Shown: positions 5,242 through 44,692, numbered from the stretch's first letter. The stretch is DNA of 50,077 bases from Reclinomonas americana ATCC 50394 (GCA_048213135.1 PS015397.1:7520-57596), one strand, 5' to 3'. Made by a program: numbers and translations. The notes: generated by a model from the letters alone, not told the origin.

Positions 5242-5931
5242 GAGTGGACGTGGCCTGTTGTGGACCCACTGGCGATATCCGTATCGAGCGAGCGATTGAT
5301 TGCTGTCTGCAAGGTTTGTTATTAGCTGTCTTTCCTTCAACCATTGTGGTTTTACGTTCTCTCACTATTTCACATTGTGCGGTCAACAGCAACTCCAAGG
5401 GACATTGAGAAGAGAGCCATGAACGCCCGAGGAGGACGAGGCGCTCAACGGACAAGGGATGCGTGTACTGCGCGAAGCGTCCGAAGCGTGAATAAGTGAA
5501 ACGAGTCAAGACGGTCGCGTGAGTATTCTTCACCCTGCAGCAGGTGCACCGCAATCTAAGACAATTAGAACCATCGCGTCGCTACTGCGGCACCCGGCTT
5601 CAACGAGTTCAGCGCCAACGCAGGCCGCTGACACCACTTGCGCCACGAAATCTTCTCGAGGACAACACGCGTTTGATTGGCTTTGCCTCCTGAATGGGAA
5701 GGTGGCAGTTGGAGAAGAGAAACAATGTGTTTGCGTGTTGCTGGTTTGCCAAGGTCATTGTCGGAAAGGGATTTGTGGGCATTTGTTGCATTTGCAATGT
5801 GGTTTTGTTGTTGTCGACGTCTTGTTGCGCCAGCGACGTCGCTTATCGTCCACCATGAAACAGGACAGGCGGAAAAATTCTTGACCGAACTTGCGAACGT
5901 GCGACGAGGAAAGCAAACTGTGTGAGGCACA

Positions 5932-5962
<31 letters not shown>

Positions 5963-5999
5963 TCTTTGCTGTTTCCCTCCAGTCTAAGGGTCAAAGGAA

Positions 6000-7818
6000 A
6001 TGAGGTGTGCGGTGATTTTCAGATGGGGTTCTCACTTTGGCACTCACTCGTGCTTCTGCCTTCTTGTTTGTGCATGTGCGCGTGTGCGCGCGTGTGCCTC
6101 GTCGACAGTGCTCGTCGAAAGCCAGCGTGGCAGATTGCTAATACTGGTGATGTGGAGGCACTGCGCGAATTGGTGGCGCGCGAGGGCGCCCGCACTCTGC
6201 TGAAGCGAAAGGAGATGACTTCGACTGGCGGCTCGGCATTCTACTGTGCCGCTCTGTTCAGCTTCCTGCCTGTGTTGGAGTATTTGTGGGAGGAGAGTGG
6301 AGTTGGGCCACAACTCGCACAACTGATCACCGACATTGGCTGGACGCCACTGATGGCCGCGACTTGCTTCGGGCATCTGCAGGTGGTGGAGTGGTTGCTG
6401 GCCGATGAGCGACGATGTCCACCGGAGATGGTGCGGGTGGTCTCCAGTGGAGATGCCGAGCATCTACAGTGCACTGCTCTGCATTATGCTGCCGAGAGAG
6501 GCCACGAAGCCATTGTGCAACTCCTCGCCACTCGCTATCCTGACCTCATTCCCATGGTCAACAAGGAGGGTAAGACAGCGGCTCAATGGGCACGCGACAA
6601 CGGCAAGCAGCAAGTGGCCGACTTGCTCGACCGTCTTGCTGCGCAGCCTGCTTCGCCACTCAGTCGACCACGTGAAGGTGTGATCTCCCTCGTCTGGCGT
6701 CTGTTGCGATGCATTCCGTTTGTGCTCACATGCCTCCGTGTGTTTTTGTCTTTGTGTGTGTCGCCCTGCCAAAGACGCAGTGCCAGCACGCCAGGTGAGA
6801 CTGACACTACCAGTTTTCGTCTGCTGATTTTTTCTTCACTTGCATCATGTGGCTTCTTTACCAGGCGGCTGGCGATGATCTCACCACATTGGCACAGCAG
6901 CTCGCCGACAAGGACGCACTTCTCGCCCAGCTCCAGCGCGATCTCGCCGCTGTGCAGCAGGAGCGAGAGCAGCAGCAGCGAGAGTGGGATCGGCAGCGGC
7001 GAGAACACGAGGCCGTCGTCGCCCAGCTGCCGCTTGTAGAGAAAAAGAGGTGCGCTGTTCTTGTTGCACTGTCGCGGGGCATATTCTCGAGCTCCCTCTG
7101 TCACTCCCTCTGTCTAATCTGCTTGTTCGTGTCGTTCGTGTGGCCGCAGTCGACGGCACAAAGCATGGCAGATAGCAAGGGATGGGGATGTGCAGGCGCT
7201 GCGCGAGTTGGTGGCGCAAGGGGGCGCGGACATTCTGCTGAGGAGAGAGGAGATGGATTCGATTGGCGGCTCGGCATTCTACTCTGCCGCTCAACAAGGT
7301 CATCTCTCTCTGTTGGAGTATCTGTGGGAGGAGAGTGGCGTCGGCCCGCAACTCGCACTGCTGGTCGATGACGATGGTGGGACGCCACTGATGGTGGCCG
7401 CTGCCAATGGAGACGTGCGCGTGGTGGAGTGGTTGCTGGCCGATGAGCGACGGTGTCCGGCGGAGATGGCGCTAGCGGTCACCAATGACAATGGCTTCAT
7501 TCCTCAGTGCACTGCACTGCATTACGCTGCCTGGAGTGGTCGCGAAGCCATTGTGCGACTCCTCGCCACTCGTTATCCCGAGCTTCTTCCCATGGTCAAC
7601 AAGGAGGGTAAGACGGCGGCTCAGCTGGCGCGCGACAATGGTAAGCGGCGAGTGGCCGAGTTGCTCGAGTGCCTGGCGGCGGAGCGGCCGCTCAATCAGC
7701 CAGGACGACCTCCACATGCAGGTGTGATTAGATCTCATTTGCTCTTGTTGTGTAAGTCTCACTATCGTACGTCCTCACTCTGTCATGTGCTTGTGCCTTT
7801 GTGTGTGTGTGTATGTGT

Positions 7819-7869
<51 letters not shown>

Positions 7870-8612
7870 CGTCACTGGCGGAAAAAGCAGCGCCAGCACG
7901 CCAGGTAAGACTGGGAGTGCTGCTCTGTTGATCTTCCTCCTCCTCCTACTTCTTCTGCTGCTTCCGCTTCTTGTTCTTGTTCTTGTTTTTGTTCTTGTTC
8001 TTTTCTTTTTCTTCTTCTTCTTCTTGTTCTCCTTCTTCTTCTTGTTCTTCTTCTTGTTCTTCTTCTTCCTCTTTTTCCTTCCGCCTTCTTCTTCTTCTTC
8101 TTCTTCTTCTCCTCCTCCTCCTCCTCCTCCTCCTCCTCCTCCTCCTCCTCCCTCTCCTTCTTCTTTTTCCTCTTCCTCTTGTTCTTCTTCTTCTTCTTCT
8201 TCTTCATTCTTCATTCTTCTTCTTCTTCTTCTTGATCTTGTTCTTGTTCTTCTTCTTCGTCTTACTCTTCATCTGCCCCTCACTTCTTGTGTAGGAGGCT
8301 AGCGATGATCTCGCCACATTGGCACGCCAGCTCGCCGACAAGGATTCACTGAATGCCCAACTCCACCGTGACATCGCCGCTGCGCAGCAGGAACGAGAGC
8401 AGCAGCAGCGAGAGTGGGATCGGCAGCGGCGTGAACACGAGGACATCGTCGCCCAGCTGCAGCGTATGGTAGCGGAGCTCGAACGAGGCAAGGATGAGGA
8501 GCAACGGAAGACTGGCGAGCTGCAGCGTACGGTGGCGGAGCTGCATCAGGCCAATTTGCAGCTTCAGCAGGTCAACGCGGAACTGCAACGAGCTGTGCGA
8601 GCGAAGGAATAA
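6000..8612 (+). CDS. Type-C gene: (ankyrin-microexon-coiled coil) x2, no catalytic domain
   Basis: Exons 6000-6004 (ATGAG), 6109-6677, 6781-6794, 6865-7049, 7150-7721, 7891-7904, 8295-8612 (TAA). All intron phases are compatible. Ankyrin motifs GWTPLMAA, TALHYAA, GKTAAQ. Confidence 0.75.
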
Positions 8613-8932
8613 AGTCTTGTCAGTGATGCGTGCGTGCACTAAGGGAGATGTGCGGGTAGCACACAGAATGCCAGCGAATGAGCCAAGGCAGTTATGCGAG
8701 GACTGCATTGCATTGCGATTCACGCAGTCTGCCAAGATACTATACTTTTGCAAGCAGAGCCTTATCAGCAGGCCGTTTGAACGCGCAGGTGCAGAACGAG
8801 TAAGAGCTGGTTGTGTGCGTCATGATACAGCCTTTCCGAGCTCTGCAGATCTCTCTGACGTGAGTCATGGCAATAAACATTGAGTCTCTGTCCGCCAATA
8901 AACAGGACAGTAAAGAACGCCTGTTGTGTGTC

Positions 8933-9013
<81 letters not shown>

Positions 9014-9057
9014 GAAGGCGTGAGCGTGTGTTGCTTATGTTTCCCCCCAGGCATGCG

Positions 9058-11953
9058 ATGCATGAAATCCGCTAGTTTCGCTTTTTTTCGTCTCTGTGGC
9101 CATTTGCCTTGGTCTCTCACTGGCTCCTCTTCTGGCTTGTGTTTGCAGCAGTCGATTCCACAGAGCACATAATCTGGCAGAGTATGGCGATGTGGAGGCA
9201 TTGCGCGAGTTGGTGGCGCGTGAGGGCGCACGCACTCTGCTGAAGAGAGAGGAGATGGATATCCATGGCAGCTCTGCATTTCTGTGTGCTGCTGAGAAAG
9301 GCCATATCTCTGTGTTGGAGTTCTTGTGGGAGGAGAGTGGCGTCGGCCCAGAACTCGCGCAAATGGTCAACGATCGTGGCCGAACGCCACTGATAGCGGC
9401 TGCCGAGAAGGAGCAACTGGAAGTGCTGGAGTGGTTGCTGGCCGATGAGCAACGTTGTCCGCCGGAGATGGTGCGGGCGGTCACCGATGATTTCGACTCG
9501 TCCACCGCGTTGCATGCTGCTGCCGCAAATGGCCGCGAAGCCGTTGTTCGACTCCTCGCCACTTCCAGGCCCGACCTCATCCCCATGGTCACCACCTGGG
9601 GCAGGACGGCGGCTCAAGTGGCACGTGACAAGGGCAAACTGCAAGTGGCTGAGTTGCTCGACCGCCTCGCTGCGCAGTATCCACAGATTTGCCAGCAGCC
9701 GCAACAGGTACCGGTTCCGCGATCTCCTTTAGCCAGAGCTGCAGGTGTGATCCCGTCTTGGCTCTAAGTTTGCGCATTGCGCTGTCCGTACTCACACTGC
9801 GATATGCATGTCTCCTTATCTCTCCCTGCAGTTACATCTTATAATGCGCGAATACTACATGTGAGACAAGAACGAATCTTTTCGTCTGCTTGTAATCCTT
9901 CGCAGCTCTCACTTTCGTTCCTCGTCTCCCTCCGGTTTCTGTGCAGATGAGGTTGAACCAATTTTTGATGAAGAAGGAGCATCTCAAAGCTCAATTGAAC
10001 GTGCGAGAGCAGCCACAGCAAGAGTGGGATTGCAAGCAGCGGGAATATGAGGTCGCTTTTGCTGAACTTCGGCAAACTTGCGCGGATCTGGAGCGAGCGC
10101 ATGCCTCCGAGGAGCAGAAATGTGCCCATCTGCAGCAACTCAACACTGAGTTGCAGCAGGGCATGGCGATGGAGCAAGCGAGGAATGCCGAATTCCAGGA
10201 AGCCATTACGCGATGGCAGTCAGCTCATGCCGACGAGCGAGAGAAGCATGCTCAACTCCAACAAACCATTGCTGAGCTGAGGCAAGGGCGGGCCGAATTA
10301 CAACAGCAACTCGCCCATGTGCGGCAAGCTTATGCTGCAGGGCAACAGCAAGCAGCGCAACTGCAGCGAACTGTGACGGAATGGCAGCAAGCTCACCGCC
10401 AACTGCAGGCTCAGCTGACCACGGCTCTGCGCGACAAGGACGACCTCACCGCACAGCTGCAAGAAAGCAATCAACTCGTCTCCCAGCTGCGACAGGATCT
10501 TCTCCTCGCCCAAGGTCAGTCTCTTGCCCTCGTTCTTTCTTCATGTCAGTGTTCAATGTTCTTCGTTCTCACCAATATCTCACTTCCTCTCGCACTCCCG
10601 TCACAGTCGACACCGCCGTGCAGCGCTTCGATTGGCCCGAGATTGTGCAAGCCACCAATTCATTCTCTCCCCGCCTCAAGGTCGGCGAGGGTGGCCAGGG
10701 TGCCGTCTTCATCACTCTGCTTCGCGAGGTGCACGTGGCCATCAAGGTACTCGACCCCGATGCACCGTGGACGATGGAGTCATTTGAGAGTGAGGTCTGT
10801 CTCTTCCCTCTCCTGTTTCTTCTGTCTTTTCTCCCTTCTCATCCTTCTTCCCATCCTCGCAGGTGGCCACCCTCGGACGCCTGCGTGACCGTCGCATCGT
10901 GCCTCTCGTCGGTTACTCGGTGGGCGACGACAAGGCTCGCTGCCTCGTGTACAAGGCTCTGCAGTGCGTTTCTCATCTGACTCTCTCTTCTTCTCCCCCG
11001 TCTCCATCATCTTCTCACTGTGAAAGCACACAGAGTTCCCAATCTGGAAGATCTATTGCTGCTGCCACGAGCCGGTCGTGCACCACTCTCTGTTGTGCAG
11101 CGTGTGCAGATTGGTTTCGGACTGGCAGAGGCTGTGGTGTTCCTGCACAAGGTTTGTGCGATGTGGATACCATCCTCCATCTTTCCATTCACCATCTCCG
11201 TCACCCGAGCTCTCTGTTCTGCACTCTCTTCCTCTTCTCTCTTCTTGCCTCTTTTGATGTTCTTGTCGCTCTCTGTCTCACGTGTTCTCTCTCTGAATAG
11301 CCCTTGCTATCTGTGCTTGCCCTTTATCTCTCTTCACTCTCTTGTGTCTCCAAATCTCTCACTTTCTCTTGTTTTCGCTGTTGTGTTTTGTGTTTTGTTC
11401 CTCGCCTGACTCACCTCCGCTCGCAGAATGAGGTGGTACACCGCGACATCAAGCCCTCCAACGTTCTTCTTGATCACCGTTTCGAGCCATGTCTCGGTGA
11501 CTTTGGCATTGCACGGTCGATTGCAGACGTCAATATGGTTTGTTGTGGTCCTTTCTCATCTCTTCGGATAGTTGCTCACTGGTCCTCATTGTGCAGACGA
11601 CGACCGCCGCCGGCACACTGGACTACATGGACCCACTGGCGATGCGTGTGCGTCGTCCACAGCCCAAACACGATGTGTACAGCGTAGGTGTGGTGCTGGT
11701 GCAGCTGGTCACTGGCAAGCCCGTGGCCACTGTGGTGGATTGGTCCGTGGAGTGGGACGACTCGCCTGCCTCGTTGCGCGTGATGGATCTCGTCGATCGT
11801 GGAGCAGAGTGGACGCCGCGCATCGCCGAACCCATGTTCGAACTTGGCATGCGGTGCATGAGCTTGCAATCGAGACGACCAACGGCACAGGAGGTGCTTG
11901 ATGTGATGCGCGCACTGCGCGAGGCATGTGGCCAGTTTACGCTGGAACTTTGA
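9058..11953 (+). CDS. Type-A gene copy 1: ankyrin-coiled coil-IRAK/Pelle/RLK-type kinase
   Basis: Exons 9058-9074 (start tentative), 9149/9152-9744, 9832-9860, 9947-10514, 10607-10794, 10863-10963, 11034-11151, 11427-11537, 11597-11953. RFDWPEIVQATNSFS..KVGEGGQGAVF, VAIK, LVY gatekeeper, HRDIKPSN, DFGIAR, GTLDYMDP, DVYSVGVVL. Confidence 0.85.
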
Positions 11954-12337
11954 AGAAAGCAAGTGAAGCAATCGCGAGAGCAATGGACAGAAGCATGCAC
12001 ATCCTTTCGTCTCACGTCTTGAATTCCGAATGCAGGAGTTTGTGTTGATGATGTTTTTATATGGTTTCGGGAGCGAACCCTCGATAAACTTGAGCAAATC
12101 ACCTTCACTCCAAGTCATTCACGCAGTCTTGTCACCGCGGCTGTCGACGTCCCTCCAGTCAGCCGCATCAATAGTTTGGCCAACAAGACAGCTGTTGCTT
12201 GTCTGTTAGTGAATGAGTTGTTGTAACTACTACAACAGCCAGCTTGCAGTACAAGACGAAGTACGAAGTCAATCTGACAATTGATTTGTGACAAGTTGTC
12301 CGCTTACTCTTTCTCAGTCTCTCTCTCCCACTCTCTG

Positions 12338-22224: not shown

Positions 22225-22712
22225 TCAAAGTTCCAGCGTGAACTGCCCGCACGCCTCGCGGAGTGCACGCATCACATCGAGCACCGGTACCTCCTGCGCC
22301 GTCGGTCGATCACGCCGCATGCTCATGCACCGCATGCCAAGCTCAAACATCGGTTCAGCGATGCGCGGAGTCCACTCAGCTCCACGATCGACCAAATCCA
22401 TGACGCGCAGGGAAGCAGCAGACCTTTCCCACGCCACGGACCAATCCACCACCGTGGCCACGGGTTTGGCGGCGACCAGCTGCACCAGCACAATGCCCAC
22501 GCTGTACACATCGTGCTCTGGATCCGGAAGTCTCACTCGCATCGCCAGTGGGTCCATGTAGTCCAGCGTGCCGGTGGCGGTTGTCGTCTGCAACATGAGA
22601 AAAAGTGAGAGGGTGCGGAAAGAGAGAGGAGAAAAGGGAACCAAGCAGACCTTGCCATCAGCAATCGACCGCGCAATGACAATGTCACCGAGACACGGCT
22701 CGAATCGGTGAT
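22225..22712 (-). pseudogene. Orphan 3' fragment of a type-A (Pelle-like) kinase gene
   Basis: DHRFEPCLGDIVIARSIADGK, retained intron, then TTTATGTLDYMDPLAM...ACGQFTLEL*. DFG is changed to DIV, everything upstream including HRD is missing, and there is a 2-aa insertion (EVPVL). Confidence 0.8.
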
Positions 22713-22783: not shown

Positions 22784-25700
22784 CTATACCGGTCCAGCAG
22801 CGACCGCGCCAACTCCTCCTCCTCCTCCTCCAACTGGTGGCACTCTCCATCCCACCCCCGCCGCCTCACACCAACGCTTCAATTCGTCGTGCACATACGA
22901 CGCTGACACTCGCGTCGCTTGTGGCCTCTGCATCACAGGCACAATGAGCCCTCGCCTCGTTCTCTCTCCCCATCCAATCTTCATCTATTTCCCACTACGC
23001 AACCCAGCATTGCCGAATCAGACTGCGAATGTCCTCCGGCACAGCTGCTCGCACACTCTCCTCATCGAGATCGCCAGGCAAGACTCCGTCATTCATGCGA
23101 CGCATAATGGCTGGCAGCGTTACCCCACTGAACGGCTCTCGGCGAGTGGTGACGAGCCAGAGCAAGGATCCAAGTCCATATACGTCTGCTCGTTCATCGT
23201 ACTGCGAATGACCGCAGAGCATGAGAGTCAACTAATTGCGTCGAGTGAGAGAAGGTCAGCAACGAACTTCCTGGTCCAACATAGCCTCCGGTGCAGCATA
23301 CGCCGCCGTGCCATGGTTCGATTGCATCTTGCCGAGAGTACCATGAATCTTGGCCTCGCCAAAATCGCACACCTTAGCCACCAGGCGGTCCTCGCTAATG
23401 ACAATATCTGCGAGTATTGGGAGAGACAACGCGATCAGTCAACTAGAGCCAACAAGATATCCTCTTAAGTCCGCTCGCCGAATGACCGAAACATTCTCTC
23501 ATCGCGAAATGAAAGACGGGGAGAAGAGGGGTGGACTACAGGCCGTCTCCTCCCCCCTCGCTCATCTTCTGATATCTATCGCTCTAATTTCGTGTCTCAC
23601 TCTACCCTTCATTGGCGCAGCCACGCCAGCAATAGCATTCTTGCTGCCTGTCACTCTGAAAGACGCAACTCTGCGGCTTGAGATCACGGTGCACCACTCG
23701 ACGCGAGTGCATGTGAAGCACCGCCGATGTGACTTGAAGCAGCAGATTAAGAAGGTGCTGAGTTGTCACACGCCCATCCTTCACCAAGTCGTGCAGCGTC
23801 TCGGCGTTGCCCTCTTCGTCTTCTTGACCGACGTATTCGAGAACAAGACCGAGACCGCTCCGATCATCGCTGCACACGGCCGTCAGTTTCACAATGTGTG
23901 GATGGCTGTATGTGTGGAGAAAAATGAGTAGATGCATTCATCCGGGGAAAGCGCTTCACGAATTTACGCAACTCGAGCTGCATCAGCAGCGAGTGCTCAT
24001 TCTCGAAGCTCTCACGAACACAGATGCAGTCCTCAGAATTCCTGATCAAGTATCGCTTATATGCAACCGTGTGCACCACACCGCCGAGGCAGAGAGTCGC
24101 ACGGAAAACAGCGTTCTGGCCTGTGCAGTAGACGGCAGCGATGAGTTGCTGTTTGACTCTGTTATTAGAAAACAAGCTGCGGCTCAAACCAATGGCCAGC
24201 TGCCTCGAAGTGGCAACATCAGAGAAATGCACAACAGGTGCACGTATGGAAAATCTCGCTGCCCTCTCCGTCATTAACTCTGCCGTAACATTGATGCGGC
24301 TCACATCTGTGCCGAAATTTGAGTTCCACAGAATAGAGACATCTTGCGTCAAGTGTTGACGCAACTCTCGTATGCTTGGAACAGCAGACGGGTGCTCTCA
24401 TGCTGGCCGTCGGGGAATAGCGTGTGGAGCGAGTCACGAACCAGCCGCATAATGCTTACATATTCTGCGTCTTCGAGTGTGGACAGACGGGCCAGATGAG
24501 ACATCCGGTGGCGCACGTCTCGCAAGTTCTCCACAGCGCGAATCTACAAAGCAGACGATAAAGTGAGAAACATGGGGGCGGACGCACAGCAAACAGGACA
24601 CACCTTTGCATCGTCAGCAAGCAGGTGTACTGCCAGTCGATCTCCGTTCGTGACAGGGTCCAGACGCACCCGACTCTCCAGCAGATCATCATCACGGCAA
24701 GCGTCGGCAGGAACAAACGATGTGTACAACAGAAGTGTGCTCAGCAGCGACACGTCCATGTCCGTGGTCATTCCACTCTGCTTAAACTCATGAATTGACT
24801 CGTAGTTGGAAGGGAATAACTCGACGGAGCGCATGCGAATGTTGCCACGCTTGTCCAGAGTCATCCGACAATACCTGTGAAGCAGATTAGCAAGAAGGGA
24901 ATATAGTACACACAGGCTATCTCTCTTTCAGCACCTCGGTGGTGGAGCTGGAAGACAGAGCTGCTCAATGTCGAATTCGGCAGGGAAGAACTCTTCGATG
25001 AGATCTTGCAAAAGCGAGCTGAGAGCCAGTGGGATGACCTCGTGCACGACTTCAGTGAGCATCAAAATGGGACGGCGGTCGCTGTGCATTCGATAGAGTG
25101 AGGAAAGAAAGTCGCCCACTGGAGTCAATGCAATTGTCACTTGAAACCTGAGAAAGTCCATGTGGAAGAGAGCGCGCAGCTGGCCCTCCATCTCTTCTAC
25201 CCGTTGTCGCAACTCATCGCGTTCGGCAGTGGCTGCGCTCGCCTGCAAGCGACAAAAGTTGCAGTCGGCGGTGGCTGCCGACAACTCGAGAGCCAATTGC
25301 TTGTGATCCGCGGCCAGCACGTCGTTGGCTCGTTGGGCAGCCAACAAGTCTTCAGTGAGTTGTCGACGGTCGGCTGACATAGCCTTGACCTTTGCTTGCG
25401 ATGCAGCCAGATTCTCGGCGAGTCGGTCACGCTCCGCAGTGACTGCACCAATTATACTAGAAGACTTGTTGGCTGCGCCCATGTGGAAAAATTGGTCGAC
25501 GCATAGCGAGTGAGCGACTGGCATGAAAAAGTAGACAAACAGGGTAAGACAGGCGACAACCAGAAACACAAACCTTGAACGAGGAGGACATTCTGTCGCA
25601 GCTGAGCGATGACACGGTCTTGCTCCTCAAGCTGATGTTGTGCAACGGACAATTGATTGGCGAGATCGTCAACGTCCCGCCGAGCAGCAGCGAGCTGGAC

Positions 25701-26321
25701 AGTAAGTCGATCGCGCTCGGCTTGCACCGCAATTTGCACCTGCTGCAGTTCAGCGTTGGCGGATTCCAATTGCGCGTTCTTGTGCTGCTCCCTCGCGAGA
25801 GCTCCTTGCCATCCCGCAATGGTCTCCTGCGATTGCGCATTCGCCCGCTGCTCTTCGTCTCTACCGCGATGGAGTTCTGCCACCACGCGCTGAATTCGGG
25901 CATTGTCTTGCTGCAGGTCCGAGTTCGCCCGCATCAACTGAACGACATGCTGCTGGGTTTCTGTGTGCGCCTGTTGCAGCTCCGCATGGGCTTGCTGCAG
26001 TTGCGCAAAAGTGCCGTCGTGCTCTAGCCGCAGCCGATCCCGCTCAAGTTGCTGTAGCTCATGCTCCTGCTGTGCTGAAGGAAGATTGTGTTGGAGCTCG
26101 GCAATGAGAGCGTCCTTGTCGATGACCTGACCAGCCACAATAGTGGCATCGTCAGACGACTGTATTTGCGCAGGGGCCAAGAAGGTGAGGAAGCAAGAGA
26201 GCACATGCGAGCAATGCCATATCGTACCTGACGTACTGGTGCTGCGATTATGAACGAACACACACACACACACATGGACACAAACGCACACAAACACAGA
26301 GAGAGAGAGAGAAAGAGAGAC

Positions 26322-26378
<57 letters not shown>

Positions 26379-26699
26379 CGTAGACCGTACGACGAACGGA
26401 CGAACCGAACGGAAGGGGTAAGGTAAGGNNNNNNNNNNNNNNNNNNNNNNNNNNNNNNNNNNNNNNNNNNNNNNNNNNNNNNNNNNNNNNNNNNNNNNNN
26501 NNNNNNNNNNNNNNNNNNNNNNNNNNNNNNNNNNNNNNNNNNNNNNNNNNNNNNNNNNNNNNNNNNNNNNNNNNNNNNNNNNNNNNNNNNNNNNNNNNNN
26601 NNNCGAACGTTAACGAACGAACGAACGAACAACGAACGAACGAACGAACGAACGAACGAACGAACGAACGAACGAACGAACGAAGAACGAACGAACGAC

Positions 26700-26781
<82 letters not shown>

Positions 26782-27589
26782 AGCGATAAAGCACTGATCA
26801 ATCGTAACATGAATGAAGTGATCAGACCTGGCGGAGGCGGCAGCGGTGGAGGGGGAGGTCGCACCAAGAGATGTTGGCGGCGGGGTGAGAGTGCAGGCTG
26901 CGCAGCGAGGCGATCGAGAAATTCGGCCACCTGCTGACTTCCTTTTTCGCGTGCCCACTGCGCCGCCGTCTTGCCCTTCTTGTTGACCATGAGAATGAGG
27001 TCGGGGAAGCGAGTGGCGAGGTACTGCACCATGACATCGTGTCCATTCGCGGCAGCATAGTGCAGCGCAGTGGACTGTGGATCGCTGTCTCGGTCATTGG
27101 TTACCGCCCGCACCATCTCCGGCGGACAACGTTGCTCATCGGCCAGCAACCACTCCACCACGTGCAGCCGCCCAGAGGCGGCAGTCACCATCAACGGCGT
27201 TCGCCCACGATCGCTGACCATTCGCGCAAGTTGTGGGCCGACACCGCTCTCTTCCCACAAGTACTCCAATACAGTGAGATGACGATTGGCGGCGGCACAG
27301 TAGAACGCCGAGCAGCCGAACGCATTCAGCTCATCTCTCTTCAGCAGCGTCTGCTCTCCCTCACTCGCCACTAACTCGCGCAGTGCCTTCACATCGCCGT
27401 CGTTCCCCATCTCCCATGCTCTCTTCCTCAGTTGGTTCCGAGGAGACGAGCAGCCAGAACTGGAAAACACACACACACACACCACCACCACCACCACCAC
27501 CACAACAACAACAACAACAACAACAACAACAGCAACAATGAGAGAATATCGACACAGAAGCACTTACCGAATGGTGAGACGCACCTCAT
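22784..27589 (-). CDS. Type-B gene copy 2 (complete): ankyrin-microexon-coiled coil-DZIP3-like HEPN RNase-TKL-like kinase
   Basis: ATGAG 27589-27585, ANK 27459-26828, microexon 26241-26228, CC 26159-25574 and 25472-25148, HEPN exons 25081-24935, 24874-24604, 24543-24366, kinase exons to the stop at 22784. RHRMSH at 24513-24496; VAYK, HRDLKPQN, DFG and YAAPE present. Confidence 0.88.
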
Positions 27590-27899
27590 TTCCCGATGCT
27601 GTGAACTGGGGGTATTCCAGCTACTATCGACTCTCGCGCGTGCTCTCTCTCTCTCTCTCTCTCTCAGAGGCACAATCTCCTCCGCGCGTGGTGAAGTAAC
27701 GCGTCGATTTCTCGTGTCCTGTATCCCAACAGCGGACAGCGGCTCGAATCACGCCAACGTCGCGCTCTTTTGCTCACAACGACAGACTGCGCTGCCACAT
27801 CATCTACGCGCACACACCACTCACCTCTCTCCCTGTCTCTCCTCTCTCTTTTCACCTGCGGCGTGTCCTGTGTGAACGAATTAATTGTCACACGTCACC

Positions 27900-28279
27900 A
27901 TGACGACCATGAGCGATCATCGGCCTCTGTTTGAGATCCTTGCGGAGCAGTCTGCGCGGAGACGAGATAATGGGCCGGTGCCGAAGTTGGAGGAACTGTG
28001 TTTGCGGGTGATCAGAACGCATTTGAGAGGTGGGGGGTGGAAGGGGAGAAGGGAGGGAGAGAGAGAGTNNNNNNNNNNNNNNNNNNNNNNNNNNNNNNNN
28101 NNNNNNNNNNNNNNNNNNNNNNNNNNNNNNNNNNNNNNNNNNNNNNNNNNNNNNNNNNNNNNNNNNNNNNNNNNNNNNNNNNNNNNNNNNNNNNNNNNNN
28201 NNNNNNNNNNNNNNNNNNNNNNNNNNNNNNNNNNNNNNNNNNNNNNNNNNNNNNNNNNNNNNNNNNNNNNNNNNNNNNN

Positions 28280-32244: not shown

Positions 32245-34758
32245 ATGAGGTTTGCTGTGATGTTGTCATGTGGCATTCTTTCTCTCGCACTCTCACTCGC
32301 GCTTCTGCTTTTGCCTCTTTGGTGGCAGTGCTCCTCGGAAGAAAGCATGGCAGATGGGCGAGTATGGCGATGTGAAGGCACTGCGCGAGTTGGTGGCGCG
32401 TGAGGGTGCACGCACTCTGCTGAGGAGAGAGGAGATGAATGAGAATGGCAGCACGGCATTTCACTGGGCCGCTGGCAGAGGCCATCTCTCTGTGTTGGAG
32501 TATTTGTGGGAGGAGAGTGGTGTCGGGTCACAACTCGCACAAATGGTCAGTGAATATGGATGGACGCCACTGATGATTGCTGCCAACAATGGGCATCTGC
32601 AAGTGGTGGAGTGGTTGCTTGCCCATGAGCGACGATGTCCGCCGGAGATGGTGCGGGCGGTCACCAATGACCAATGGAATCCGCAGTCCACCGCGCTACA
32701 CTATGCTGCCAAGTATGGTCACGAAGCCATTGTGCGACTCCTCGCCATTCGCTTCCCCGACCTCATTCCCATGGTCGACAAGCGGGGCAAGACGGCGGCT
32801 CAGTGGGCACGCGACAAAGGCGAGCAACACGTGGCCGAGTTGCTCGATCACCTCGCTGCGCTACCAGCACCACCACGCCAACAGCAACAACTACAGCAGC
32901 CGCGATCCCCGCCTCCTGCAGGTATGACCTCCATAATGTCTCTTGGCAAGTTGTGTTCGTGCTCACGCTCCACCATCTGTGGTTTGTCCTTGTGTGTGTC
33001 GTTCCTGGCGAATATGCAGTGCCAGCACGCCAGGTGAGACGGAGAGTGCCACTCTGTGCTTCCTGTTGCTCGTGAAACTCACTTCTCACATCCGTTCCGT
33101 GTCTCCCTCGCACTCTCGTAAATTGCAGTCGGCTGTTGATGATCCCACCGTCGCACGCCAGCTCGCCGACAAGGACGTACTCCTTGTGCAGCTGCAGCGC
33201 GATCTTGCCGCAGCGCAGCAGGAGCGGGAGCAGCAGCAACGGGAATGGGATCGACAGCGACGAGAGCACGAGGACATTGTCGCCCAACTGCAACAAGCCA
33301 GTGCAGAGCTCGAAGGAGACAAGGCCGAGGAGCTGCAGAATATTGCCCAGTTGCAGCGAATCATCGCGGAGCTTGAGCGAGCCAAGGTTGAGGAACAGCA
33401 CAAGGTCGCCCAACTGCAGGCGGCGGTGGGCGAATGGGAGCGAGCTCACGTTGACGGACAACATCAAATCGCGCAATTGCAGCAAGCCAACTTGGAATGG
33501 CAACAAGCTCACGCCAGTGAGCAGCAGAGGAATGCTCAATTGCAACAAGCCAATGCTGAATGGCAACAAGCTCATGGTCAATTGCAGCAAGCTCATGGCC
33601 AACTGCAGGATCAGCTGACTGCGGCTCTGCGCGACAAGGACGATCTCACCGCGCAGCTGCAAGCAAGCAATCAACTCGTATCTCAGCTGCGACAGGATCT
33701 CCTCCTCACCCAAGGTCTGTGGTGTGAGTCCTTCATTCTCACCCATTTCTCACTCCCTTCCCTCTCGTTCCACAGTCGACACCGCCGTGCAGCGCTTCGA
33801 GTGGCCCGAGATCGTGCAAGCCACCAACTCATTCTCTCCCCGCCTCAAGGTCGGCGAGGGTGGCCAGGGTGCCGTCTTCATCACTCTTCTCCGCGAGATG
33901 CACGTGGCCATCAAGGTGCTCGATCCCGAAGCACCGTGGACGATGGAGTCGTTTGAGAGTGAGGTCGGTGTCTCTCTCCTTTTTCGCTGCCTTCTCTCTT
34001 TCTCCTCATCCTTCTCTTCCCGTCTCCCAGGTTGCCACCCTCGGACGCCTGCGTGACCGTCGCATTGTGCCACTTGTCGGCTACTCGGTGGGCGACGACA
34101 AGGCACGCTGTCTCGTGTACAAGGCTCTGCAGTGCGTTTCCATCTCTCTCTCTCTCTCTTTTTCTCCATCATCGTCTCACTGTGAAAGCACACAGAGTTC
34201 CCAATCTGGAGGATCTGTTGCTGCTGCCACGCGCCGGTCGTGCACCACTCTCTGTCGTGCAGCGTGTGCAGATTGGTCTCGGGCTGGCCGAGGCCGTGGC
34301 GTTCCTGCACAAGGTTTGTGCGATGTGGATGCCTTTCTTCATCTCCCATTCACCCTCGCTATGCCTTTGCGTTCTTCGCTCTTCTTTCTCAATGTCACTC
34401 TACTCATGTTCTTGTCTCTCGTGCTTCTACTTTATCTTGTCTCTCGTGCTTCTACTTTACCACTCTTCTGTCTCTCTTGGTCACCCTTGCCCTCTTTACG
34501 TTGCTCATTATTCTCTTCTGTCTTCGTCACTCTGTGCCTTACTTGTCACTCCTGGTTCTCTGATTCCCACTGCTCTCTTTCCCGTCTTGTTGTGTTTTAC
34601 GCTTTGTTCTCGCCTCTCTTACCTCTCCTCGCAGAATGAGGTGGTGCATCGCGACATTAAGCCCTCCAATGTGCTTCTCGATCACCGCTACGAGCCATGT
34701 CTTGGTGACTTTGGCATTGCGCGGTCGATTGCAGATGGCAAGGTCTGTTTCCATTCAG

Positions 34759-34792
<34 letters not shown>

Positions 34793-35178
34793 ACGCCTGC
34801 TCACATTCCCTCATCTCACAGACCACGACCGCCGCCGGTACACTGGACTACATGGACCCACTGGCGATGCGTGTCCGTCGCCCGCAACCCAAACACGACG
34901 TGTACAGCATGGGTGTAGTGCTGGCGCAGCTGGTCACTGGCAAGCCCGTGGCCACGGTGGTGGATTGGTCCGTGGAGTGGGACGACTCGCCAGCCTCGCT
35001 GCGTCCAATGGAACTGGCGGATCGTGGAGCAGAGTGGACACCGCGCATCGCCGAGCCAATGTTTGAACTCGGCATGCGGTGCATGAGCATGCAACCGAAG
35101 CGACCGACGGCGCAGGAGGTGCTCGATGTGATGCGTGCACTGCGCGAGGCGTGTGGGCAGTTTACGCTGGAGCTTTAA
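32245..35178 (+). CDS. Type-A gene copy 2 (complete): ankyrin-microexon-coiled coil-IRAK/Pelle/RLK-type kinase
   Basis: Exons 32245-32249 (ATGAG), 32329-32921, 33020-33033, 33129-33714, 33776-33963, 34031-34131, 34196-34313, 34635-about 34743, 34822-35178. Kinase nearly identical to copy 1. Confidence 0.9.
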
Positions 35179-36156: not shown

Positions 36157-37525
36157 TGTCGGCTCAGGAGTTGGGCGGCTGTGCATTGCTGCTCTCTCCT
36201 CCCCGATCGTCGCCACCCTCTCGTGTTAAAATGGAGAAAGATTGTACACACGCTCAGATGCTGGAAGTGAAGGGGAGGGGGGAAGCGACACGCACATTGC
36301 ACAAGAATGCAACGAAGTATGTGCATTGTTCTCTCTCTCTCTCTCTCTCGCCGTGCTCCTTTCGCTCTCGCCTACTCCGCTCTCCTTGGTCACCTTCACC
36401 ATATCCGCCGTTTGTCTTCTTACTCTCTTGACAATCCTTTTAACTCTGTCTCAACTCCTCACTTGAATGCAAGTTCTCCCTTGTCGACTTGTTTCCTCCT
36501 TACTACACAAGTATTCTTCGCCTTCGCTCTTACTCTATCCTCTCATCCCTCCAATCTCCTTCCTCCCCCATGACCCCCTTCTCCCTATCATGCCCTTTTC
36601 CCCTTCCTTTTCATCTCCCTTCCCCTTCATCTCCCTTCCCCTTCATCCCCTTCCCCTATTCCCTTCCCCTTTATCCCCCTTCCCCTTTAACCTCCCCTTT
36701 ATTCCCAGACCGACCTCCCCACCACCACCCTCAACGGCCGCGGCATCTCCTCCACCCTCCTCCACCTCCACCCCGACATCATCGCCCTCCAAGAGGTCAT
36801 CGACCCCTTCGACGGCGAAGCCGACTCTGTCGCCGACGCCTTTGATGCCGTGGAGCGCGACCCCACCATCTCCCAAGTGCGCCGCGTGGCCGACGCCCTG
36901 CACATGCCCTTTGTGCACTTTGCGCCCGCCCAAGGCAACTTCGGCAACGCGCTGCTGGCGCGCTGGGTGCCCGACGCCGTGCTGCAGCAGCCGTTGAGTG
37001 CCGACCGAGTGGCGGTGGCGGCGCGTTTCGCGGCGCTCGGCGTCGACGTGGTGACCACGCATCTGGATCATGTGAGCGAGAGCAAGCGGCTGGCGCAGTG
37101 GAGCGTGTTGCGCGAGTGGCGGAGGAGCGACGAGTGTGCCGAGTGGCCGCACTTGGTTGTCGGTGATTTGAATGCGGTGTCGCAGGGGGATTATGTGGCG
37201 GACGCGGAGGAGGAGTTTTGGGCGGAGCTGGCGGAGAATGGTGATGGGCAGGTGATGAATAAGGTGGAGGTGGGTAAAAGGGAAGGGGGTAGGGAAAGAG
37301 AGAGAGGAGAGAGAGAGAGAGAGAAAAGAGAGAGGGAGAGAGGGAGGGAAGAGAGCGAGAGAGAGAGAGGTTTGGGAACGAGAGAGAGCGAGAGAGACGG
37401 AGAAAGGGAAGCAGAGAGAGTGAGAGAGTAGAGAACGAGGGCGCCACTCACTCACCTGAAGCAAGATCTGTGACGAGGAAGCAGGATGAGATTATTGCAC
37501 TCGATCGGCCTTGCTCTTGTGTGTT

Positions 37526-40263: not shown

Positions 40264-42531
40264 TCCTTCTGTCGTATTACCTTTTTCTCTCTGTTTCTTT
40301 CTTTCTCTCTCTCTCTTTCTTTCTTTCTTTCTCTCTATCTCTCTCTTCTCCTTTCTTTCTTTCTCTTCTTTCTTTCTTTCTTTCTCTCTCTCTCTTTCAT
40401 TCTTTGTTTCTTTCTTTCCTTCTTTCTCTGTCTCTTTCTCTCTCCTGCATTCTTCTTTCTTTCTTTCCTTCTTTGTTTCTCTCCGTCTTTCTTTCCTTCC
40501 TTCTCAGGCTCATTCTTTCTTTCTTTATCTTATTTCTTTCTTTTTCTCTCTTTCCTTTTTTCCTTCTTTCTCTCTCTCTCTTTCTTTCTTTCATTCTTTC
40601 TCTCTTTCTCTCTTTTTCTTTCTTTCTCTGTCTCTCTTCTCTCTTTCTCTCTTTCTTTCTTTCTTCTTTCCTCCTTTCTCTCTTTCCTTCTTCCTTTCTT
40701 CTTTCTTTCTCTCTCCTCTCTCTCTCCCCGTCTCTCTCTGTGTCTCCCTCTCTTTCCCCATCTCTCTCTCCCTCCTTGCACCACGCAACTCAATGTCAGC
40801 CAGCGTCTCCAGCAAGTACGCCCGCGTGTCCTCGCCGACATCGAGCTTCACCACATACGCAAAGAGGAAGCGGATAATGTCCACCAGGGAGTGGCCGCGG
40901 ACGGTCATCACACCGGAGATGTCTGTTGAAGGGGCAGGGGGCGTGGGGAGAAGAGAAAATCAGTGATTGAAAGCGTAAATGTAGAAGAAGAAGAAGAAGA
41001 AGAAGAGAGAGAGAAATTCGGTGACGGGGAACCAGTGGGAGAAAGAAACATCAAAGAATATTCACTGTGAGCATGACTCTCAGCAGTCTTTTCTCTCTTC
41101 TCCTGCCAGCCTATCACCATTCCTTCTCTTACCACCATCTCTCTCTCCTCCCCACCCCTCTCCTCTCAGTCCCCCACTTCCAATTGCCCATCTACCTCCT
41201 CCCTTGCCCTACTCTCCTCGTTCTTCTTATCCCCTTCACACTTTCTCTCTACCTCCCATACCATTCCCACACTCTTTCTTCTCCGCCGCCATTCTCTTCC
41301 CCTCCTCCTACCCCTGCTCCTCCTTCTACCCTTACCCCTCTCTCCTTTCTTCCCCCTTCCTTCCCCTTTCGCTTCCCGACCTCTCCTCTCATAATCACCC
41401 ACTCTGTCCTGCTTAAATCTTTGCACTCTTCTCTTCCTCCTTCACCTTCTTTTCACTCTCCTCCGGCATAGCTCTCTCAACTTCTCCCCACTCTTCTTCA
41501 CCCCTTCCCCCTTCACCCCTTTACCCCCTTCCCCCTCCTTCCCCCTTCCCCCCCCCCTTCCCCTTTCCCCCTTCCCCCTTTACCCCCTTCCTTCCCCTAT
41601 CTTCCCTCTTGAAGCAACTCTTGTAGCACGCCGAAAACGGCTCATCACACAACCACTGCATGATCTGCTTGACCTCGCTGGGCGTCGGATTGCCGGTGTT
41701 GATGTACACCTCGTCGACATCGATCCTGTCGTGCGCCATGCTCGTGCTCTGCAACACGTTGAGACACTTGCGCATGTCGCCGTTGGCCAGGCGGATAATG
41801 GCGGTGAGGGCTCGGTCGGTGACCGTGACGCTGGGAAGAGGGGGAAAGGAGGTGAGGCGGGTGAAGAAGAGCTGTTTGACATAGATGAACACGCCGCACT
41901 TTTCCGTCGTGGCAATCTCGCGCAATCGCGGCATGATTTGTTGCATGCGAAGGGGGGCGAAGCGGAAGCGCGTGCAGCGCGACTGCAGCGCCGGAATGAT
42001 CTTGTTGACGTTGTTGCAGATGAGGCAGAAGCGGGCGTTGCGAGTGTACTTTTCCATGACTGCGGTGGAGGGAGTGGGGTGAATGACGGGAAAAGGTGGG
42101 GAGGCGCAGAGGAGCGAGCCCACCTCTTCTCAGCGCACTCTGCGCCTCGTTGGTGAGCTGGTCGGCTTCGTCTAGAATGATGAGTTTGAGGGCAGCACTG
42201 CGTGACACGCTGGCAGTGAGCGGGAGCATGGAATACGAAAAGCAGCAGTGAGGCTGCGCACCTGAACACTTGTCGCGTGGAGGCGAAATTCTTGATTTGG
42301 TCGCGCACAATGCCGATGCCTCGGTCGTCGGAGGCGTTGAGCTGCGAAAGTGGTGTAAGCAGCGGGAGAGAGTGAAACAGAGGAGGTGCTCACTTACCTC
42401 CAGCACAAACTTCTGCAGTCCATCGCCGTAGAGGCGCCTTGCGCAGGCCAGAATCGTCGTTGTCTTGCCTGTTCCAGGTGGTCCGTAGAACAGCAGGTGG
42501 GGTAGCTTGCCTTGGTCGAGGAAGCGAGTGA
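40012..42531 (-). CDS. RFC5: Replication factor C small subunit (RFC5 / yeast Rfc3 type); 5' end in gap
   Basis: [83 protein letters not shown]; terminal exon [20 protein letters not shown]. Confidence 0.92.
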
Positions 42532-44692
42532 CTGGCGAGGGGGGAGGAGGAGGGGGGAAGGGGAAGGGAGGGGGGAAGGGGGGAGGGAGGAAGTGAGAAG
42601 GGGGAGGTGAGAGGGGGAGAGCGAGTGGGGGAGCGAGTGACTGGCGAGGGGGTGGGAAGGGGAAGGGGGAGAAGGGGAAGGAGAATGTGAGAAGGGGGAA
42701 GTGGGAAGGGGGAAGTGGGGAAGGGGGCAGAGCGAAGTGGGAAGGGTGGAGCATAGAGGGGGAGCGAGAGGGGGAGCAAAGAGAGGGGAGCGAGAGGGGG
42801 AGAGCGAGAGGGGAGAGCGAGAGGGGAGAGACGTAGAGGGGAGAAGACGACGAGGGACACGTCGAGAGGGACTACGTTCGACAGGTACTANNNNNNNNNN
42901 NNNNNNNNNNNNNNNNNNNNNNNNNNNNNNNNNNNNNNNNNNNNNNNNNNNNNNNNNNNNNNNNNNNNNNNNNNNNNNNNNNNNNNNNNNNNNNNNNNNN
43001 NNNNNNNNNNNNNNNNNNNNNNNNNNNNNNNNNNNNNNNNNNNNNNNNNNNNNNNNNNNNNNNNNNNNNNNNNNNNNNNNNNNNNNNNNNNNNNNNNNNN
43101 NNNNNNNNNNNNNNNNNNNNNNNNNNNNNNNNNNNNNNNNNNNNNNNNNNNNNNNNNNNNNNNNNNNNNNNNNNNNNNNNNNNNNNNNNNNNNNNNNNNN
43201 NNNNNNNNNNNNNNNNNNNNNNNNNNNNNNNNNNNNNNNNNNNNNNNNNNNNNNNNNNNNNNNNNNNNNNNNNNNNNNNNNNNNNNNNNNNNNNNNNNNN
43301 NNNNNNNNNNNNNNNNNNNNNNNNNNNNNNNNNNNNNNNNNNNNNNNNNNNNNNNNNNNNNNNNNNNNNNNNNNNNNNNNNNNNNNNNNNNNNNNNNNNN
43401 NNNNNNNNNNNNNNNNNNNNNNNNNNNNNNNNNNNNNNNNNNNNNNNNNNNNNNNNNNNNNNNNNNNNNNNNNNNNNNNNNNNNNNNNNNNNNNNNNNNN
43501 NNNNNNNNNNNNNNNNNNNNNNNNNNNNNNNNNNNNNNNNNNNNNNNNNNNNNNNNNNNNNNNNNNNNNNNNNNNNNNNNNNNNNNNNNNNNNNNNNNNN
43601 NNNNNNNNNNNNNNNNNNNNNNNNNNNNNNNNNNNNNNNNNNNNNNNNNNNNNNNNNNNNNNNNNNNNNNNNNNNNNNNNNNNNNNNNNNNNNNNNNNNN
43701 NNNNNNNNNNNNNNNNNNNNNNNNNNNNNNNNNNNNNNNNNNNNNNNNNNNNNNNNNNNNNNNNNNNNNNNNNNNNNNNNNNNNNNNNNNNNNNNNNNNN
43801 NNNNNNNNNNNNNNNNNNNNNNNNNNNNNNNNNNNNNNNNNNNNNNNNNNNAAGTGGGAAGGGGGAAGTGGGAAGGGTGGAGCGAGAGGGGGGAGCGAGA
43901 GGGGGAGCGAGAGGGGGAGCGAGAGGGGGGGAGCGAGAGGGGGAGAGCGAGAGGGGGAGGGGGAGAGCGAGTGCGAGCGGAAGGCAAAGAAAATCATGCT
44001 TGTCCACATCCTCATATCACTTTCGTCTCTCTCACAGCCTCTTTCACTCTTTCACACACAAACATGCACGCACACACAATCACTCTTCGTATAATTCTCT
44101 TTTCTCCCTTTAACTTCTCCAGTTGATGTCTTCGTTGCTTCGTTCGCTCAGTCTGCTCTCCTTCCTCTTTATGACTTCCTTCATCTCTTTCATCTCGCCA
44201 GCGTTTGCGCAACTTGTCGAGATGATATCCGTTTGCGACACAACGTCTGCACCAGAAACAATCGAGTGAGAAGTCGACCGCAGGCACCGTGAAACTCAAG
44301 CAAACGCACCGTCAAGCGCCGAAGGCCGATACTTTTCCACCCAAGGCATTCCGTGACTGTTGAAAAGAGAGGGAGTGAGTAAGCAGGAGTCGGAAGGTGG
44401 AGAGAAGAAGGAAATGAAAGAGAGGAACGCAAGGCAGAGGAGTTTGAGAGGGAGAGAGACACAACACAGAGGCATGGCAAGAGAAACGATACATGTGCGA
44501 GTACAGAAGCGGCAGACAAACAGGAGACAACTAGATTGTGTGCGGCACGGATAGAGAGAGGGCGCGAGTGGGAGGCAGAAGGGCAGAAGGGCAGAATGGA
44601 GAGGAGGAAAGCGAGAGGAGAAACCGGCAGAAAGCGCGAAAGGGAGGGGTACAACTCAAAAAACACGGACAGGAGAAGACAAGTGGATTGCA

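Follow-up and report, generated by a model that had tools for sequence, protein, structure and literature searches.

The question raised by the locus described here is whether a eukaryote has, independently of RNase L and Ire1, coupled a ribonuclease (RNase) of the HEPN superfamily to a protein kinase for a second time. The locus lies in a 50,077-nucleotide (nt) stretch of DNA from Reclinomonas americana ATCC 50394 (GCA_048213135.1 PS015397.1:7520-57596), which was analysed in full and is referred to as the window; positions are counted from its first letter. A reading of this DNA from the sequence alone (the sequence-only reading) had pointed to two paralogs, here copy 1 (plus strand) and copy 2 (minus strand), and had proposed that both encode an RNase L-like effector made of ankyrin repeats, a coiled coil, a HEPN RNase and a kinase. 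In our reading, the product of each paralog is a single large cytosolic member of an ankyrin, coiled-coil and kinase family that has expanded locally. An orphan, predicted helical domain of ~215 amino acids (aa), together with a TAK1/RIPK-like kinase, appears to stand in place of the IRAK-like kinase usual in that family. Judged by its sequence features, this middle domain is plausibly a HEPN domain, with a chance close to even.

Architecture of the two gene copies

The window is eukaryotic nuclear DNA with short introns and 16 assembly gaps (4,432 N). On the minus strand, successive open frames from 27563 to 22784 encode ankyrin repeats, then a coiled coil, then a helical region and finally a protein kinase. 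Copy 2 is a multi-exon eukaryotic gene (27410-22784, minus strand) made up of these parts, with the ~215-aa middle domain between the coiled coil and the kinase (Table 1). From 25440 to the stop at 22784, removal of seven introns yields an uninterrupted frame of 669 codons. These introns measure 59-262 nt; six are GT-AG, three of them with the unusual donor hexamer GTTGCG, and one is GC-AG. The introns at 24934-24875 and 24603-24544 are 60 nt each, in frame, and contain a stop codon each. The GC-AG intron (23969-23906, minus strand; TT/GCGTAA, the slash marking the splice site) was modelled in this way because no frame-keeping GT lies nearby in copy 2: a GT donor for this junction, which follows QLE, was rejected, as neither nearby GT preserves the frame and the GC donor does. 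In copy 1, a usable GT donor lies 9 nt further on than the GC donor of copy 2.

The two coiled-coil exons of copy 2, whose junction lies upstream of the region covered by the 669-codon frame, are joined by a GT-AG intron that can be read directly (CAAG/GTTTGT ... GCGCAG/CC). In both copies, a single exon runs from the coiled coil into the beginning of the middle domain. How the ankyrin exon of copy 2 is spliced to the coiled coil is unreadable because the intron holds an N gap (26429-26603), and the two are assigned to one gene because the same order is found in four other paralogs of the window. For copy 1, the window opens only within the 5' part of the gene, and no ankyrin exon is included. 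Of the two paralogs that had been described, both contain the coiled coil, the middle domain and the kinase, but the ankyrin exon of copy 1 is not within the window.

The ankyrin exon of copy 2 contains ankyrin repeats by Pfam, matching Ank_2 (E=2.7e-20, 73.1 bits against a cut-off of 27.3) and Ank (E=3.9e-15, 55.5 bits). The coiled coil (26129-25572, minus strand) is rich in Q, E, L and A, and its best Pfam match is Cep57_CLD_2 (1e-08), with further matches to BRE1 and TPR_MLP1_2. The kinase matches Pfam Pkinase (E=1.1e-09) and has, in the spliced frame, the motifs of an active kinase: VAYK with the beta3 lysine, HRDLKPQN, DFG and APE. The glycine loop, which is separated from the middle domain by a linker of ~60 residues, reads GTGQNAVF in copy 1 and a degenerate CTGQNAVF in copy 2. 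Because the catalytic residues are kept, the kinase is not pseudokinase-like by sequence, and it is apparently catalytically competent. Together, Pfam and the spliced frame bear out the proposed order of ankyrin repeats, coiled coil, helical R-x4-H domain and kinase.

Among PDB sequences, the C-lobe exon is nearest to TAK1 (E=3.3e-05), followed by RIPK1, MLKL, WNK1 and RIPK2, and the catalytic-loop exon matches generic kinases only, Ire1 among them (E=2.4e-05). A word-seeded search with a kinase exon against longer proteins gave 86 candidates, none at E≤0.001. No KEN domain was found after the kinase; the spliced frame stops 48 residues past the QCW motif of the C-lobe.

Sequence evidence bearing on the middle domain

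The 2013 HEPN survey defines the superfamily by an all-alpha domain of ~100-120 aa with an Rx4-6H motif and a polar residue after the R, often with an upstream acidic residue in an E-x3-[KR] pattern (PMC3710099). The minus strand carries DMDVSLLSTLL and AVENLRDVRHRMSH in copy 2, and RHRMSH was found in both copies at the positions given by the sequence-only reading. RHRMSH, whose R and H are R270 and H275 in the 669-aa spliced numbering, is encoded by CGC CAC CGG ATG TCT CAT in copy 2 (24513-24496) and by CGC CAT CGC ATG TCT CAC in copy 1 (2604-2621). The three synonymous differences between these strings had been recognized correctly, but the strings had been attached to the wrong copies. In both copies, RHRMSH fits the Rx4-6H pattern, and its R is followed by one of the polar residues expected there (N, D or H). 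The upstream E-x3-[KR] element is likewise present: copy 2 has ESRVR, at residue 235 in the spliced numbering, and copy 1 has ESGVR, 35 residues before the motif R; short patterns of this kind are frequent by chance.

Comparison of the two copies gave ratios of nonsynonymous to synonymous divergence (dN/dS) of 0.30, 0.14 and 0.07 for the middle-domain exons in order, and of 0.23-0.25 for three of the five kinase exons (all except 23407-23268 and the last). Synonymous divergence (dS) between the copies is 0.35-1.6. Purifying selection, which had been suspected from the codons of the motif, is supported for both copies; it acts most strongly on the exon with R-x4-H, and no other part of the gene is as constrained. 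In a 147-nt tract that closes the first middle-domain exon (24937-25083, minus strand, versus 1381-1527, plus strand), dS is only 0.06, compared with 0.58-0.97 in the flanking exons, suggesting recent gene conversion between the copies. The 60-nt intron that adjoins this tract is alike in both copies by eye.

The order LFP...D-[IV]-[ST]-L-L...~45 aa...R-[NH]-x3-H...D-x-x-[FY] in the middle domain resembles that of HEPN domains of the DZIP3 type, as do the upstream D-[IV]-[ST]-L-L element and its spacing. The sole independent lead to HEPN came from a protein-language-model search with the 60-aa motif exon ('recognition' 2410). The top matches were two unnamed viral clusters (0.91); a DUF4559 cluster scored 0.87 (176 shared features), and clusters bearing PF18738 (HEPN_DZIP3) scored 0.86 (179 of 256 shared features) and 0.77. 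In this tool, at least 170 shared features are typical of same-family matches. DUF4559 is the HEPN family of CXorf38. The case for HEPN consists of a short motif, strong constraint and this one language-model lead.

Other results speak against the HEPN reading. R[NDH]xxxH occurs 31 times in the 59,139 residues of the six-frame open reading frames (ORFs) of at least 60 aa in the window, that is, 0.52 times per 1000 aa, and ~0.6 occurrences would be expected by chance in a protein of this size; by itself, the RHRMSH motif is not beyond chance. Conservation of its R and H rests on two sequences that are ~85% identical. In the language-model search, the family agreed in only 4 of the 10 best family-bearing matches, a level at which the tool rates the family as 'probably wrong'. 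The same search with the second exon, which contains DMDVSLL, gave nothing above 0.78.

Profile searches against HEPN families, a kind of check that the sequence-only reading had suggested for the spliced domain, came back empty. These searches were run on single exons and on the read-through domain, in which 20 intron-coded residues lie inside the most diagnostic stretch. Pfam hmmscan at E≤10 found no family, either with the read-through domain or with any single exon of copy 1 or copy 2, and PADLOC and NCBIfam each gave 0 matches for the middle domain. The curated cut-off of PF18738 (27 bits, 144-position model) was not reached, with nothing reported for the read-through domain or any exon; the family is also absent from E. 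coli K-12 and 14 control genomes. A blank HMMER result means nothing better than about E=0.25, as the filters hide worse matches. PHROGs yielded only E=0.12 and 0.21, both for families of unknown function. Profile sensitivity was lowered because an intron splits the motif region from the preceding helix and the exons were searched unjoined. Because the Pfam test came out negative, the gene cannot be filed in PF18738; its product could nonetheless function in the manner of a HEPN RNase.

Searches for relatives also count against HEPN. No relative turned up when the read-through domain was compared by phmmer with 1.84 billion representative proteins, word-seeded searches with the domain were blank (longer proteins at E≤0.01; proteins of similar length at E≤10), and PDB sequence searches with it returned noise only. 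A JGI metagenome scan gave 85 pattern matches, 0 of which were confirmed by tblastn. Two AlphaFold2 models of the domain had predicted local distance difference test (pLDDT) values of 32.8 and 36.1, too low for fold comparison, with only two sequences, ~85% identical, as input. HEPN domains are four-helix up-and-down bundles; DSSP places helices around both motifs in these unreliable models, and the label 'helical' for the middle domain derives solely from this assignment at pLDDT 33-36. Hence, of the HEPN identity that had been claimed, the motif features stand and have gained a language-model lead, but neither a HEPN profile match nor a sequence relative was found.

Paralogous modules and neighbouring genes

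Five modules of ankyrin repeats followed by a coiled coil occur within 50 kb. In addition to that of copy 2, ankyrin modules at 6116, 7154, 9162 and 32336 are each followed by a coiled coil on the same strand and are 61-70% identical to the copy 2 module. The paralog kinase C-lobes are nearest to those of IRAK4 and BIK1. This tandem cluster (5885-12000 and 32261-35178) looks like a lineage-specific expansion.

An IRAK-like kinase C-lobe remnant, whose open frame ends ...GQFTLEL as in the paralogs, lies just 3' of the copy 2 stop (Table 1). By tblastn it is 71% identical to 34564-35175; compared with 34846-35175, identity is 83% and dN/dS is 0.17 over 108 codons. Its DFG reads DIV, and no matching N-lobe was found nearby by tblastn. 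A recent remnant, a gene-conversion target and an alternative 3' exon are all candidates for this element. A degraded version of the IRAK-like C-lobe also follows copy 1. The simplest history would be that a cassette of the middle domain and the TAK1-like kinase replaced an IRAK-like kinase before the duplication that gave rise to copies 1 and 2.

Table 1 Coordinates of the two copies, their paralogs and associated elements in the window
Feature	Position	Strand	Basis or remarks
Copy 2 ankyrin-repeat exon, first ATG (MGNDGD...) to about the repeat end	26880-27410	-	Within ORF 26610-27563; Pfam Ank_2, Ank
Assembly gap (175 N) in the presumed intron between ankyrin and coiled-coil exons	26429-26603	.	
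Copy 2 coiled-coil exon 1	25572-26129	-	Pfam coiled-coil families
Copy 2 coiled coil, part 2, in the exon shared with the middle-domain start	25201-25440	-	Single open frame 25626-24928; in clean spliced frame
Copy 2 middle domain, first part (FHMDFLRF ... EEFFPAEFDIEQL)	24935-25200	-	81% aa identity to copy 1 1258-1527
Copy 2 middle domain, second exon (LFPSN, DMDVSLLSTLL, ESRVR)	24604-24874	-	86% identity to copy 1 1592-1861
Copy 2 middle domain, third exon (IRAVENLRDVRHRMSH and two further predicted helices)	24366-24543	-	RHRMSH 24513-24496
Copy 2 kinase, five exons (24306-23970, 23905-23670, 23407-23268, 23201-23004, 22927-22784)	22784-24306	-	Pkinase; stop 22786-22784
Copy 1: coiled coil ~800-1257; middle domain 1258-1527, 1592-1861, 2574-2744 (RHRMSH 2604-2621); kinase 2810-4552; last exon ~5097-5241	800-5241	+	
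Paralog without middle domain: ankyrin, coiled coil, IRAK/Pelle-like kinase	32261-35178	+	Pfam Ank, Pkinase; ORFs
Second paralog without middle domain: ankyrin, coiled coil, IRAK4/BIK1-like kinase	9066-11953	+	
Shorter ankyrin and coiled-coil starts	5885-7036 and 7118-8594	+	
IRAK-like kinase C-lobe remnant	22228-22689	-	Just 3' of the copy 2 stop

Elsewhere in the window, a divergent ORF (27885-28068, plus strand; MTTMSDHRPLFEIL...) begins ~300-450 bp from the 5' end of copy 2 and runs into an N gap. The ORF at 36691-37428 (plus strand) matches Pfam Exo_endo_phos (E=3.3e-11), with adjoining ORFs that have no match, and is possibly a retroelement endonuclease or a cellular enzyme. ORFs at 41524-42871 (minus strand) match AAA (1.1e-06) and AAA_lid_RFC1 (3.8e-06) and are probably parts of a housekeeping gene, a clamp-loader or a relative of one. 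Scans of the window for rRNA, tRNA and Rfam families found none, and (GA)n and (CA)n microsatellites are plentiful in its intergenic stretches.

Explanations and related systems

Based on these data, we favour a reading in which the middle domain is a highly diverged, metal-independent endoRNase of the HEPN type, DZIP3/CXorf38-like, within an ankyrin/coiled-coil/kinase protein that works as an RNase switch; we consider its chance to fall somewhat short of even. In the proposed mechanism, the ankyrin repeats would bind a partner or signal, and the coiled coil would join two or more chains. The middle domains, if they adopt a HEPN fold, would then pair, their R-x4-H motifs making up a composite site for RNA cleavage. 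The kinase next to them, apparently active, could regulate this RNase by trans-autophosphorylation, as in Ire1, and the output may be a defence or stress response. The five ankyrin modules, the IRAK4/BIK1-like kinases of the paralogs and the TAK1/RIPK1-like kinase of copies 1 and 2 would fit an immunity-like context. Possible, but doubtful, is the more specific evolutionary proposal that an orphan, lineage-restricted HEPN RNase was fused before an active TAK1/RIPK-like kinase, behind ankyrin repeats and a coiled coil, by replacement of an IRAK-like kinase in a growing gene cluster of immune type in a eukaryote that is probably a protist. This would make it a second, independent kinase-coupled HEPN RNase, opposite to Ire1 and RNase L in domain order and with a kinase able to catalyse.

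The evidence can also be read, with a substantial though less than even probability, as pointing to a non-catalytic, lineage-specific helical module that serves regulation, dimerisation or kinase docking in a signalling kinase, with the R-x4-H motif arising by coincidence. This would account for the lack of a HEPN profile or sequence match in every search and of a usable fold, and for the occurrence of the motif at the chance rate of 0.52 per 1000 aa; the kinase is intact, the paralogs have a kinase alone as their C-terminal module, and strong constraint is equally expected of a structural or regulatory domain. It fits less well with the language-model lead, which connects the very exon that carries the motif to two eukaryotic HEPN families, with the stronger constraint on that exon than on the kinase core, or with the motif order and spacing, which resemble those of DZIP3-type HEPN domains.

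An executioner domain of four helices, MLKL-like or HeLo-like, placed before a RIPK/MLKL-type kinase and killing by membrane damage rather than RNA cleavage, is improbable. A helical domain does lie directly N-terminal to a kinase whose C-lobe matches TAK1, RIPK1, MLKL and RIPK2, and the ~60-residue linker is reminiscent of the MLKL brace. However, MLKL and HeLo families gave no match in Pfam, and the language-model matches are not to these families. Moreover, the domain is internal, behind ankyrin repeats and a coiled coil, whereas MLKL and HeLo bundles are N-terminal, and the kinase keeps the catalytic residues, whereas MLKL is a pseudokinase. Very unlikely, finally, is a decaying or mis-assembled pseudogene pair in which the ankyrin exon, the coiled coil and the middle domain with the kinase do not form one expressed gene. 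The N gap between the ankyrin and coiled-coil exons, the GC donor needed at one copy 2 junction, the kinase remnant downstream and the 16 gaps and plentiful microsatellites of the window would agree with such decay or mis-assembly. They are set against a clean spliced frame of 669 codons, dN/dS of 0.07-0.30 at dS of 0.35-1.6 between the copies, one exon that in both copies continues from the coiled coil into the middle domain, and an ankyrin-then-coiled-coil order repeated in four other paralogs.

The favoured HEPN reading invites comparison with several known systems. RNase L is a pseudokinase, and the RNase of Ire1 is activated by kinase-mediated dimerisation. Ankyrin repeats (as in RNase L), a kinase fold and, if the HEPN reading is right, a HEPN-superfamily RNase are likewise combined in one chain here, and activation driven by oligomerisation would by analogy be a natural model for the present gene too. 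In RNase L and Ire1, the kinase is followed by a KEN-type HEPN RNase (PMC3710099), and RNase L also has N-terminal ankyrin repeats, which bind 2-5A. The order is reversed in the present gene, with the candidate RNase before the kinase and no KEN after it. Furthermore, the kinase keeps VAYK, HRD, DFG and APE, unlike that of RNase L; it is nearest to TAK1 and RIPK1, with Ire1 only among generic matches; and a long coiled coil is present. With no KEN, a reversed order and an apparently active kinase of a different type, the gene falls outside the RNase L/Ire1 family. The RNase L analog put forward by the sequence-only reading accordingly survives as an analogy only: ankyrin repeats and a kinase are present, but KEN is missing and the kinase is active-looking and TAK1/RIPK1-like. 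No gene resembling 2-5A synthetase was seen among the 86 window ORFs scanned.

With the DZIP3/hRUL138-like (PF18738) and CXorf38/DUF4559 families, the middle domain shares R-[polar]-x3-H in a predicted helical domain and the language-model proximity of the motif exon. It differs in having no Pfam match even at E≤10, and the host here is a eukaryote with introns of 59-76 nt. The survey table lists fusions of DZIP3-type HEPN domains to ankyrin, CARD, NACHT and DEATH as well as lineage-specific expansions (PMC3710099); ankyrin fusions and expansions of this sort in immunity-like contexts are a further likeness to the present locus. A kinase fusion is not among the architectures given for the family in the survey passages considered, which list kinase fusions for KEN only (PMC3710099). 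Likewise, no description of a DZIP3-type HEPN domain fused to a kinase was found in the literature considered, although the supplementary alignments of PMC3710099 may hold more architectures.

Similarities to the IRAK/Pelle/RLCK kinases (IRAK4, BIK1) concern the kinase type of the paralogs at 32261-35178 and 9066-11953 and of the remnant downstream of copy 2, whereas copies 1 and 2 use another kinase and have the middle domain in addition. Pfam scans of the domain and of the window ORFs revealed no death domain. MLKL, with its four-helix bundle, brace and pseudokinase, resembles the present protein in that a helical domain stands just before a kinase of the tyrosine kinase-like (TKL) type and in appearing among the PDB matches of the C-lobe; it differs in the internal position of the domain here, the apparently active kinase and the lack of a sequence match to the MLKL N-terminal families.

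If the middle domain is not a HEPN domain, the locus would still hold an orphan, strongly constrained helical domain without a detectable relative among 1.84 billion representative proteins, which would be of moderate interest. Should it prove to be a functional HEPN RNase, the coupling of RNases to kinases would extend beyond the ancient Ire1/RNase L lineage. Such an enzyme would have been re-assembled from other parts, with a HEPN domain of DZIP3-like and a kinase of TAK1/RIPK-like type, in a eukaryote that the annotated proteomes searched do not include, and it would offer a natural case for studying the control of HEPN nucleases by oligomerisation and phosphorylation. The locus itself appears to show effector swapping in progress: one ankyrin and coiled-coil front end is combined either with an IRAK-like kinase or with the new cassette, and the apparently displaced remnant is still visible.

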